DNA from: a virus
Lineage: Duplodnaviria; Heunggongvirae; Uroviricota; Caudoviricetes
Virus record (IMG/VR): IMGVR_UViG_2541047429_000025
Strand: one strand, 5' to 3'
DNA: 9,558 nt
The position numbers were made by a program, and so were the translations under genes. The notes under the pieces are model-generated. The model saw nothing but the letters and a program-made list of their open reading frames with translations, was not told the origin of the DNA and did not search any database. Shown here one piece after another: positions 338 through 952 of this stretch (positions are counted from its first letter, which is position 1; each line of letters opens with the position of its first letter).

Positions 338-529
338 TTAAAGTCCTGCCGGTATTTCGTTATTATTAGTGTGAGTAGTTTTATCTACCGGATAACAGTT
401 ACCGGGAATTTTTTGTTCTGCTGCTGCAGCCATGCATTCTTTCATTGAACCGTATAAGCCAGTCACCAGCTCAAGAGATTCGCCGGAAACAAGATAAACT
501 GTCAGAACGAGTGCAAATGTTGTATTCAT
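338..529 (-). CDS. ydfD: small membrane/exported protein, YdfD-like (63 aa)
   Basis: ORF-track ORF; N-terminal hydrophobic segment MNTTFALVLTVYLVSG; AAAGGA about 8 nt upstream; start codon overlaps the dicB stop (ATGA), suggesting translational coupling. Symbol assigned from position directly after dicB and identical length to YdfD of the K-12 Qin prophage (recalled, not searched). Confidence 0.55.
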   Translation of the reverse strand: MNTTFALVLTVYLVSGESLELVTGLYGSMKECMAAAAEQKIPGNCYPVDKTTHTNNNEIPAGL

Positions 530-714
530 TGTTTATATCCTTTTTGCAGCAGGTCCAGACGAGCCAGCATTGAAGGAATGCATACTTCATTTAACAGGTC
601 CTGCTCGAGTTTTCTCTGCTTAATGGCGTCTTCAATAAATGTTTTGTCTCCAGTGATAACGCCAATTTCGAAACGAAGTTCAGACGTGCTGGCATTACAT
701 GATAACTTTTCCAT
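526..714 (-). CDS. dicB: cell division inhibitor DicB (62 aa)
   Basis: Internal ATG of ORF 526..822 at 714..712 with GAGGA 8-12 nt upstream; product MEKLSCNASTSELRFEIGVITGDKTFIEDAIKQRKLEQDLLNEVCIPSMLARLDLLQKGYKQ. Same length as, and collinear with, my recollection of K-12 DicB (FEIGV...TEDAI..RK...LLN..CI.SMLARL). Lies directly downstream of the DicF-like element as in Qin. The longer 98-aa version from ATG 822 has no RBS. Confidence 0.8.
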   Translation of the reverse strand: MEKLSCNASTSELRFEIGVITGDKTFIEDAIKQRKLEQDLLNEVCIPSMLARLDLLQKGYKQ

Positions 715-893
715 TATCGCGTCCTCAACAATGAATTTTGTGATGCGGTGCCTGGTGCCTCCAGGTGACGTTAACCAGTTAACAATTAACGCCGGATACA
801 GAGCATTCTCGTTACTCAGCAAATGACCGCTTTACCGATTTAACTGTTCCGCGTGCGCTGAGCCGCATTCACCGCATCACAAAATTCACTTTT

Positions 894-952
894 AAAAAAG
901 GGCGGCAGAGCAGTTACGGAGTAAAACTGATACCGCCAAATGTCACCAGAAT
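894..952 (-). ncRNA. dicF: DicF-like small regulatory RNA ending in an intrinsic terminator
   Basis: Minus-strand sequence uucuggugacauuuggcgguaucaguuuuacuccguaacugcucugccgccc followed by UUUUUU. It matches the recalled 53-nt K-12 DicF at all but about two positions. A GC-rich stem (GGCGG...CCGCC) precedes the T-run. Confidence 0.65.

Follow-up and report, generated by a model that had tools for sequence, protein, structure and literature searches.

The window, a 9,558-nucleotide stretch of tailed-phage DNA (IMG/VR record IMGVR_UViG_2541047429_000025), encodes an O157:H7-type prophage allele of the division-inhibition module formed by the small RNA (sRNA) DicF, the protein DicB and the lysis protein YdfD. 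Together these elements make up a well-known prophage cassette that blocks cell division, and the cassette found here is real, yet ordinary, in that it represents already-known biology. We read the region as the distal portion of a lambdoid prophage's early-left operon, the counterpart of dicBF in the Qin prophage of Escherichia coli K-12, and assign this reading, jointly with the mechanism proposed below, a probability of about 90%, because DicF, DicB and the YdfD-like protein all pass family cut-offs, the gene order equals that of K-12 Qin and O157:H7 chromosomes with an annotated dicB match the region at 100% identity. Two features alone go beyond the textbook picture: an allele-specific difference in the DicF seed and a conserved RNA domain upstream of DicF.

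DicF, dicB and a ydfD-like gene form an intact cassette

All cassette elements lie on the minus strand; the original prediction had placed them on one strand without naming it. The range that it gave, 526-952, takes in DicF and dicB and largely leaves out the ydfD-like gene (Table 1). The Rfam DicF model (RF00039) matches positions 951..900 from end to end (model 1-52 of 52) with 76.9 bits (E = 4.5e-16; gathering score 48 bits), so that the covariance model places DicF within the predicted interval 894..952. The 53-nucleotide (nt) span used here, 952..900, is set by the K-12 5′ end, and the Rfam span is 52 nt. The DicF hairpin (937-901) folds at -15.5 kcal/mol and is followed by a U6 tract, bearing out the proposal that this sRNA carries its own terminator, and nt 1-15 are unpaired in the mature RNA. 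A scan for consensus terminators missed this one, as its 11-nt loop exceeds the 3-8 limit of the scan. DicF lies 185 nt upstream of dicB on the same strand and downstream of the ydfA-like and ydfB-like genes; RefSeq annotates the cassette genes but not the sRNA.

Relative to K-12, this DicF copy carries the substitutions U1A, G12A and G38A together with one extra U and one extra A in the tail. The earlier estimate of about two differences is therefore correct for the 52-nt Rfam span, which contains G12A and G38A, and misses the change at nt 1 and the longer tail. Among DicF copies, positions 12 and 38 vary (G, A or U at both), and A is the Rfam consensus at position 12. Of 5426 complete E. coli genomes, at least 325 carry the exact 59-nt allele, tail included; megablast cannot count all DicF alleles, as these differ every 25 nt or less and its word is 28 nt.

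The 62-amino-acid (aa) protein encoded downstream aligns with DicB over its full length, as predicted, in Pfam (PF05358; 131.8 bits, cut-off 27; residues 1-62 on profile positions 1-62), in NCBIfam (NF049927; 123.7 bits, cut-off 100) and against K-12 DicB (55% identity, 69% positives, 0 gaps), and its gene is preceded by a Shine-Dalgarno sequence, GAGGA, at 727..723. The predicted overlap between the dicB stop and the start of a 63-aa protein is also present, as ATGA at 529..526. This second protein belongs to DUF1482 (PF07358; 69.2 bits, cut-off 25) and shares 63% identity with K-12 YdfD, a protein annotated as 'lysis protein'; no NCBIfam model matches the 63-aa protein. Ratios of non-synonymous to synonymous substitution rates (dN/dS) against K-12 are 0.56 for dicB and 0.35 for ydfD, with dS at about 0.5-0.6 in both, and values below 1 support the two as real coding genes. 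A longer, 98-aa dicB open reading frame (ORF) starting at a TTG at 822 was rejected: the Pfam match covers only its residues 37-98, the extension runs over conserved RNA helices and over sequence that shares only 43% identity with K-12 and contains an indel, and dicB has 62 aa in RefSeq. For DicB and YdfD as encoded here, we infer activity from the K-12 homologues.

The same comparisons bear on whether the cassette might be a decaying remnant whose divergent dicB and ydfD no longer encode active division or lysis inhibitors. The modest identity to the tested K-12 proteins (55% and 63%) and the fairly relaxed dN/dS of dicB would fit decay, as would the state of the matching prophage in O157:H7 strain TR01, in which the integrase is frameshifted and several genes are disrupted. 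However, both ORFs are intact at exactly the K-12 lengths, the ATGA coupling and the Shine-Dalgarno sequence are kept, family cut-offs are well exceeded over full length, dN/dS stays below 1 for both genes, and the allele is at least 99% identical across hundreds of genomes. We consider such decay very improbable.

The cassette is an O157:H7-type relative of K-12 Qin

The order of elements, from the ydfA-like and ydfB-like genes through an ORF, DicF, dicB and the ydfD-like gene to an exonuclease gene, is that of dicBF in K-12 Qin (dicA-ydfA-ydfB-ydfC-dicF-dicB-ydfD-ydfE), and the likeness extends to strand logic, the ATGA overlap and the exonuclease-type gene that follows. The non-coding parts are 89-99% identical to K-12, and both RNase III-type helices described below are kept. 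Identity amounts to 89% upstream of DicF (953-1230), 94% in DicF, 93% in the 5′ part of the DicF-dicB spacer and 98.8% in the dicB leader (715-800), compared with 72.5% in the dicB coding sequence and 75% in that of ydfD. The fall from 98.8% to 72.5% occurs precisely at the dicB start codon (window 715), which on sequence grounds marks a mosaic junction where a gene module appears to have been exchanged beside a conserved RNA linker; divergent DicB and YdfD on a leader nearly identical to that of K-12 would thus exemplify mosaic exchange at a start codon. The window differs from Qin in that an unrelated 129-aa ORF replaces ydfC, an additional 61-aa gene lies on the opposite strand (1288-1473), a PaaA2-ParE pair stands between the repressor gene and the early-left promoter, and the repressor bears only a distant resemblance to DicA (51.5 bits, cut-off 101).

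Positions 300-1300 of the window are 100% identical to many E. coli O157:H7 chromosomes, and because dicB and DUF1482 are annotated there, the cassette is not a chance resemblance. In TR01 the locus is a lambdoid prophage that adjoins yccA at one end and has its other end at a tRNA-Ser gene by hya (serT/hya region), a location that presumably corresponds to Sakai Sp4 and EDL933 CP-933M. Annotated there are dicB, DUF1482, ydfB, DUF1391 (ydfA-like), RelE/ParE with its antitoxin, a helix-turn-helix (HTH) repressor, a YdaT-family gene and hokD; the prophage also encodes tccP2 and a PerC-family regulator, and a 2472-bp 'exonuclease' coding sequence occupies the place of the gene that begins at window 1..244.

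Table 1. Positions of the cassette, its RNA elements and associated features in the window
Feature	Position	Strand	Basis
DicF sRNA, 53 nt (A1/A12/A38 allele relative to K-12)	900..952	-	Rfam RF00039; alignment to K-12 dicF
U6 tract completing intrinsic terminator	894..899	-	Sequence; DicF hairpin 937-901
dicB, 62 aa, divergent allele	526..714	-	Pfam, NCBIfam; dicB in RefSeq
ydfD-like gene, 63 aa, hydrophobic N terminus	338..529	-	DUF1482
Predicted DicF-dicB spacer with perfect 21-bp closing helix, 890-870 with 750-730	730..890	-	MFE fold
Predicted hairpin, 962-955 with 948-941, pairing the DicF 5′ seed in the precursor	941..962	-	MFE fold
Predicted interrupted helix of ~20 bp, 1158-1135 with 1101-1078	1078..1158	-	MFE fold
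Module A, four-helix RNA, ~115 nt	969..1083	-	Covariation; own covariance model
PL-like early-left promoter/operator region	2528..2577	-	Operator repeats; TTGACA 2558..2553
ydfA-like gene, 51 aa, operon gene 1	2191..2346	-	DUF1391, Pfam PF07151, 97.5 bits; DUF1391 family protein in O157:H7 annotation
ydfB-like gene, 42 aa	2061..2189	-	ydfB in O157:H7 strain TR01 annotation; phrog_2061
129-aa ORF at K-12 ydfC position	1660..2049	-	phrog_1363, 172.8 bits
61-aa gene encoding CxxC...CPEH motifs, flanked by the 129-aa ORF and the DicF precursor	1288-1473	+	phrog_10133
Start of exonuclease gene, 81 codons of ~823 aa, remainder cut by window edge	1..244	-	phrog_2082 exonuclease, 191.6 bits
MFE, minimum free energy.

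Two predicted long helices lie where RNase III products should end

In K-12, RNase III generates a 190-nt species and RNase E the 53-nt DicF from a polycistronic transcript, and terminated (ydfABC-dicF) as well as read-through (to ydfD) transcripts are seen on Northern blots (PMC10448788). A 72-nt DicF arises by RNase III cleavage of read-through transcripts (PMC5069750). We computed an MFE fold of window 1235..715 and found two long helices placed where the 190-nt and 72-nt RNase III products should end, which is the reason for reading them as processing sites. The 3′ arm of the upstream, interrupted helix contains positions ~1089-1083, the calculated start of a 190-nt RNA ending at the terminator, and both K-12 differences within its 10-bp core leave pairing intact. 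This helix is likely to be the upstream RNase III site that would yield the 190-nt DicF precursor. The 5′ arm of the 21-bp spacer helix contains position ~881, 19 nt past DicF nt 53, and its 3′ arm stops 3 nt before the dicB Shine-Dalgarno sequence; cleavage here would likely give the 3′ end of the 72-nt DicF and trim the dicB leader 5′ of the Shine-Dalgarno sequence. All substitutions relative to K-12 in the two long helices (4 of 4) switch between Watson-Crick and wobble pairs and keep the pairing.

A shorter predicted hairpin holds in its loop the 953/952 junction, homologous to the K-12 5′ end generated by RNase E, and G12A converts a U.G into a U-A pair within it. What is conserved relative to K-12 in this region is the putative processing helices and the AU-rich site. 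In the same fold the DicF U-tract extends the 21-bp helix by pairing weakly with the dicB Shine-Dalgarno sequence, and because of this pairing a single RNase III cut in the spacer might both free DicF and unmask dicB translation. The spacer also resembles the RNA family STnc100 (RF02076) at 33.6 bits, below the gathering score of 47 (model 21-154 of 206, window 886..737); the similarity takes in the outer stem, making the spacer related in structure and not a member at the curated threshold.

These elements suggest the following course of events. A repressor-controlled PL-like promoter near 2558-2528 would start a leftward transcript that passes the ydfA-like gene, the ydfB-like gene, the 129-aa ORF and a structured non-coding stretch before it reaches DicF, where the hairpin and U6 tract would halt most polymerases. 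RNase III would then cut in the upstream helix to leave a precursor of ~190 nt, from which RNase E would strip the structured 5′ domain to give the 53-nt DicF. With Hfq, on the K-12 precedent, DicF would pair through its hairpin loop to the ftsZ ribosome-binding site and lower FtsZ synthesis, and its single-stranded 5′ seed would target other messenger RNAs (mRNAs). Polymerases that read through would make the spacer, in which RNase III cleavage at the 21-bp helix would part DicF from the dicB message, and would go on to transcribe dicB and the translationally coupled ydfD-like gene. By analogy with K-12, DicB together with MinC would block septation and YdfD would lyse cells.

Several points weigh against this account. 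The RNase cleavage positions are placed from published RNA lengths and predicted structure. A scan for consensus promoters found none upstream of the ydfA-like gene, where the spacer is 19 nt, and the convergent 61-aa gene inside the operon (1288-1473) could lower read-through to DicF. At only 55% identity to the K-12 protein used in experiments and with a fairly relaxed dN/dS, DicB could have different partners, and, with G12A, the set of DicF targets may differ from that of K-12 DicF.

The window allele is predicted to keep ftsZ pairing and to pair more weakly with xylR

Experiments have shown that the 5′ end of DicF acts on xylR and its 3′ part on ftsZ (PMC5069750). We predicted duplexes of the window allele and the K-12 allele with the K-12 ftsZ and xylR leaders. 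Positions -22..+1 of ftsZ pair with DicF nt 25-30, 32-36 and 41-44 in a duplex (DicF nt 21-46) of -16.9 kcal/mol that is the same for both alleles: all ftsZ-pairing loop nucleotides are as in K-12, and G38A falls in an unpaired part. For xylR codons 3-7, the K-12 seed (nt 5-16) gives 12 consecutive predicted pairs and -16.7 kcal/mol, compared with 7 of 12 base pairs and -11.2 kcal/mol for the window allele, a weakening due to the interruption of the 12-bp helix by G12A. We predict that division inhibition through ftsZ would be kept and control of xylR weakened in this allele. The original prediction that target pairing may differ from K-12 applies, on these energies, to xylR and not to ftsZ, for which loop and energy are unchanged. 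As this common DicF allele differs at the seed from the K-12 allele used in most experiments, K-12 results should not be carried over target by target.

A conserved RNA domain precedes terminator hairpins in diverse phages

The segment upstream of DicF contains a four-helix RNA, which we named Module A, made of a closing stem (1083-1076/976-969) and hairpins at 1072-1068/1061-1057, 1044-1040/1030-1026 and 1014-1006/986-978. In an alignment of 41 distinct sequences, 93.4% of cells at paired positions are paired and both sides have changed in 11 of 27 pairs; none of 500 shuffles reaches the observed values, and controls with slid positions are 37-61% paired, although these controls do not yield probabilities. 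There is hardly any variation in the first hairpin, and the search patterns fixed two short segments, in which invariance is uninformative. A covariance model built for Module A scores 160.9 bits in the window, 149.2 bits in phage cdtI and 93.1 bits in phage P1. Rfam searches of the window, cdtI and P1 at permissive thresholds (E<=10) return nothing that matches Module A, and the Rfam DicF model is not found in the cdtI or P1 segments. ORFs at 954-1286 (+, 110 aa) and 984-1094 (-, 36 aa) were not taken as genes, because covariation here is of the RNA type and annotations of K-12 and O157:H7 include neither.

When phage genomes were searched sensitively with window 1235..715 as query, Module A also turned up in places that lack DicF. 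Its identity is 91% in Stx2c-converting phages, phage cdtI, Ayreon and 2H10. The P1 counterpart, at 76% identity, is part of the leader of the ban operon, which C1 controls, and overlaps an annotated 'dicF-like region'. Pattern scans add copies in Escherichia, Shigella, Citrobacter, Trabulsiella, Erwinia and Izhakiella genomes and in more than 100 viral contigs; the related loci, in our numbering, are L004 2996-3126, L005 2485-2613 (phage P1), L030, L032 and L034-L152. In every copy an intrinsic terminator hairpin follows ~15-50 nt after Module A. Outside P1 and the short E. albertii-type hairpins, it starts with UUUGGCGG, and this start reads (U)UGGCGG or differs from it by one base. Loop and 5′ flank are highly variable. 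We distinguish at least eight flavours, several of which lack the seed or the loop complementary to ftsZ: canonical DicF, a DicF loop with another 5′ flank, the cdtI, L034 and P1 types, a short hairpin that retains the UUCUGGUGA seed without the ftsZ loop, hairpins whose loop contains a start codon and a Shine-Dalgarno sequence (Erwinia, Izhakiella, Trabulsiella), and others. Only copies with the 21-bp-helix spacer are followed by dicB and ydfD, which do not occur behind the cdtI, P1 or start-in-loop types.

This pattern has a bearing on the view that the DicF hairpin is mainly a tL1-like early-left terminator that shields the lysogen from dicB/ydfD leakage, with the RNA as a by-product of little regulatory role. 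Related phages always carry an intrinsic terminator at this place and its flavours vary, so that the conserved feature would be the terminator and not the targeting sequence, and terminated as well as read-through transcripts are made in K-12 (PMC10448788). Nevertheless, the copy in the window keeps the whole ftsZ-pairing loop, targets of DicF have been demonstrated in K-12 and enterohaemorrhagic E. coli (PMC5069750, PMC9438474, PMC7873438), and most of the loci sampled show strong conservation of canonical DicF. The two roles are moreover compatible. We regard the explanation of the hairpin as mainly a terminator as unlikely and retain the reading of DicF as a regulatory RNA of the division-inhibition module.

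We read the 190-nt DicF precursor as one case of a leader-plus-terminator unit that is conserved more widely in phage early operons, with DicF as one version of its terminal hairpin. A further step, which we put forward tentatively as possible, is that DicF is one of several interchangeable terminator-hairpin cartridges on Module A, itself a leader with a function of its own. Candidate functions are control of terminator read-through (cis-acting antitermination or attenuation) and guidance of maturation by RNase III or RNase E. If Module A does have its own function, this would explain the conservation of the 190-nt precursor and connect DicF with a broader class of early-leader RNAs in phages, which could matter more than the cassette itself. 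The searchable literature contains no description of Module A, which is weak evidence of absence. In cdtI and Stx2c-type phages Module A is the first segment transcribed after cI, and in phage cdtI and one Stx2c phage there is no ORF of 50 aa or more, and no N gene, on that strand between cI with its presumed early-left promoter and Module A with its terminator.

The put RNAs of phage HK022 and Module A are alike in being structured RNAs in an early phage transcript just before terminators, an analogy of position only; Module A has four helices in ~115 nt, whereas put RNAs have two stems in ~70 nt. Homology to HK022 putL/putR was rejected, as BLAST (word size 7) and the covariance model (filters off) are blank on the HK022 immunity region, and a short local likeness of GUC-AGGUU-GAC to the apex of put stem II is contradicted by covariation for pairing with the distal arm. 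In four loci from Trabulsiella, Erwinia, Izhakiella and a viral contig (L027, L030, L032 and L077), the terminator loop contains a Shine-Dalgarno sequence and ATG (GTG in L077), and the resulting ORF crosses the 3′ arm and the U tract, an arrangement that suggests that termination could be coupled to translation initiation. In the P1 locus, L005 positions 2634-2738, just after the P1-type terminator, give a weak match to permuted transfer-messenger RNA (tmRNA; 24.1 bits against 47, E = 0.008) over a stretch that would encode a tag-like peptide, ANDDLMMVAA, before a stop. This match is probably due to chance.

A probable operon promoter and neighbouring toxin modules

Operator half-sites of 16-17 nt (ACAATAAAAAACTGT / ACAGTTTTTTATTGT) occur at 2531-2548 and 2557-2577 and are repeated at 3568-3608. 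The latter is the divergent promoter region between the repressor (PaaR-like) gene and a YdaS-like gene, and the former set lies downstream of parE, so that OR-like and OL-like sites ~1 kb apart flank the repressor-PaaA2-ParE genes. As the half-sites recur at the OR region, we place a PL-like promoter near 2558-2528, upstream of the ydfA-like gene, which by analogy most likely drives the operon. The promoter region of the window cannot be aligned with K-12 dicBp except at the ydfA ribosome-binding site. In prophage CP-933P the corresponding promoter and operator (PL933P/OL) are experimentally defined and repressed by PaaR2 and YdaS, and CP-933M carries a homologous system, with kil/dicB-type genes 3′ of the repressor (PMC8630535). 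The window shares with the CP-933P immunity region (paaR2-paaA2-parE2, ydaS, ydaT, PL933P) an HTH repressor, a PaaA2-type antitoxin, ParE, divergent YdaS/YdaT-type genes and a PL-like promoter whose operators repeat those at OR. It is a homologue of that region, not CP-933P itself, and regulation here would follow by analogy.

ParE (PF05016, 63.5 bits, 2911..2624) lies beside its PaaA2-type antitoxin (PF21217, 68.3 bits, 3102..2911), and Hok (PF01848, 83.2 bits, 9216..9371) is accompanied by sok (Rfam RF01794, 113.3 bits, threshold 59, 9047..9221). With ParE and Hok confirmed and YdaS/YdaT-type genes also in the window, the original count of at least four growth-inhibitory functions is right or conservative. 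The window is hence an O157:H7-type lambdoid prophage with a dicBF, a PaaA2-ParE and a hok/sok module. Among the smaller genes, neither the 129-aa ORF (1660..2049) nor the 61-aa gene (1288-1473) matches a Pfam family, and the latter has no counterpart in K-12 Qin.

The TR01 prophage also carries, ~18 kb from DicF, a gene for a 104-aa, Pch-like regulator of the PerC family (L154 7713-8027), which we provisionally take to be pchA. Because published DicF activates pchA translation, DicF and a target that it regulates may travel on one prophage. Multiple dicF copies are reported from O157:H7 strains such as Sakai, EDL933 and 86-24, with up to four in different O157:H7 prophages, and O157:H7 DicF has a role in activating pchA at low oxygen (PMC5069750, PMC7873438, PMC9438474). 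Over the whole window, matches to O157:H7 references cover only 87% of the length, which means that the source prophage differs downstream. On sequence comparison it appears to be a mosaic variant absent from the complete E. coli genomes searched, with the difference at window ~8100-9000. A DUF551 gene (8106-8750) stands there where the O157:H7 references carry an alpha/beta hydrolase.

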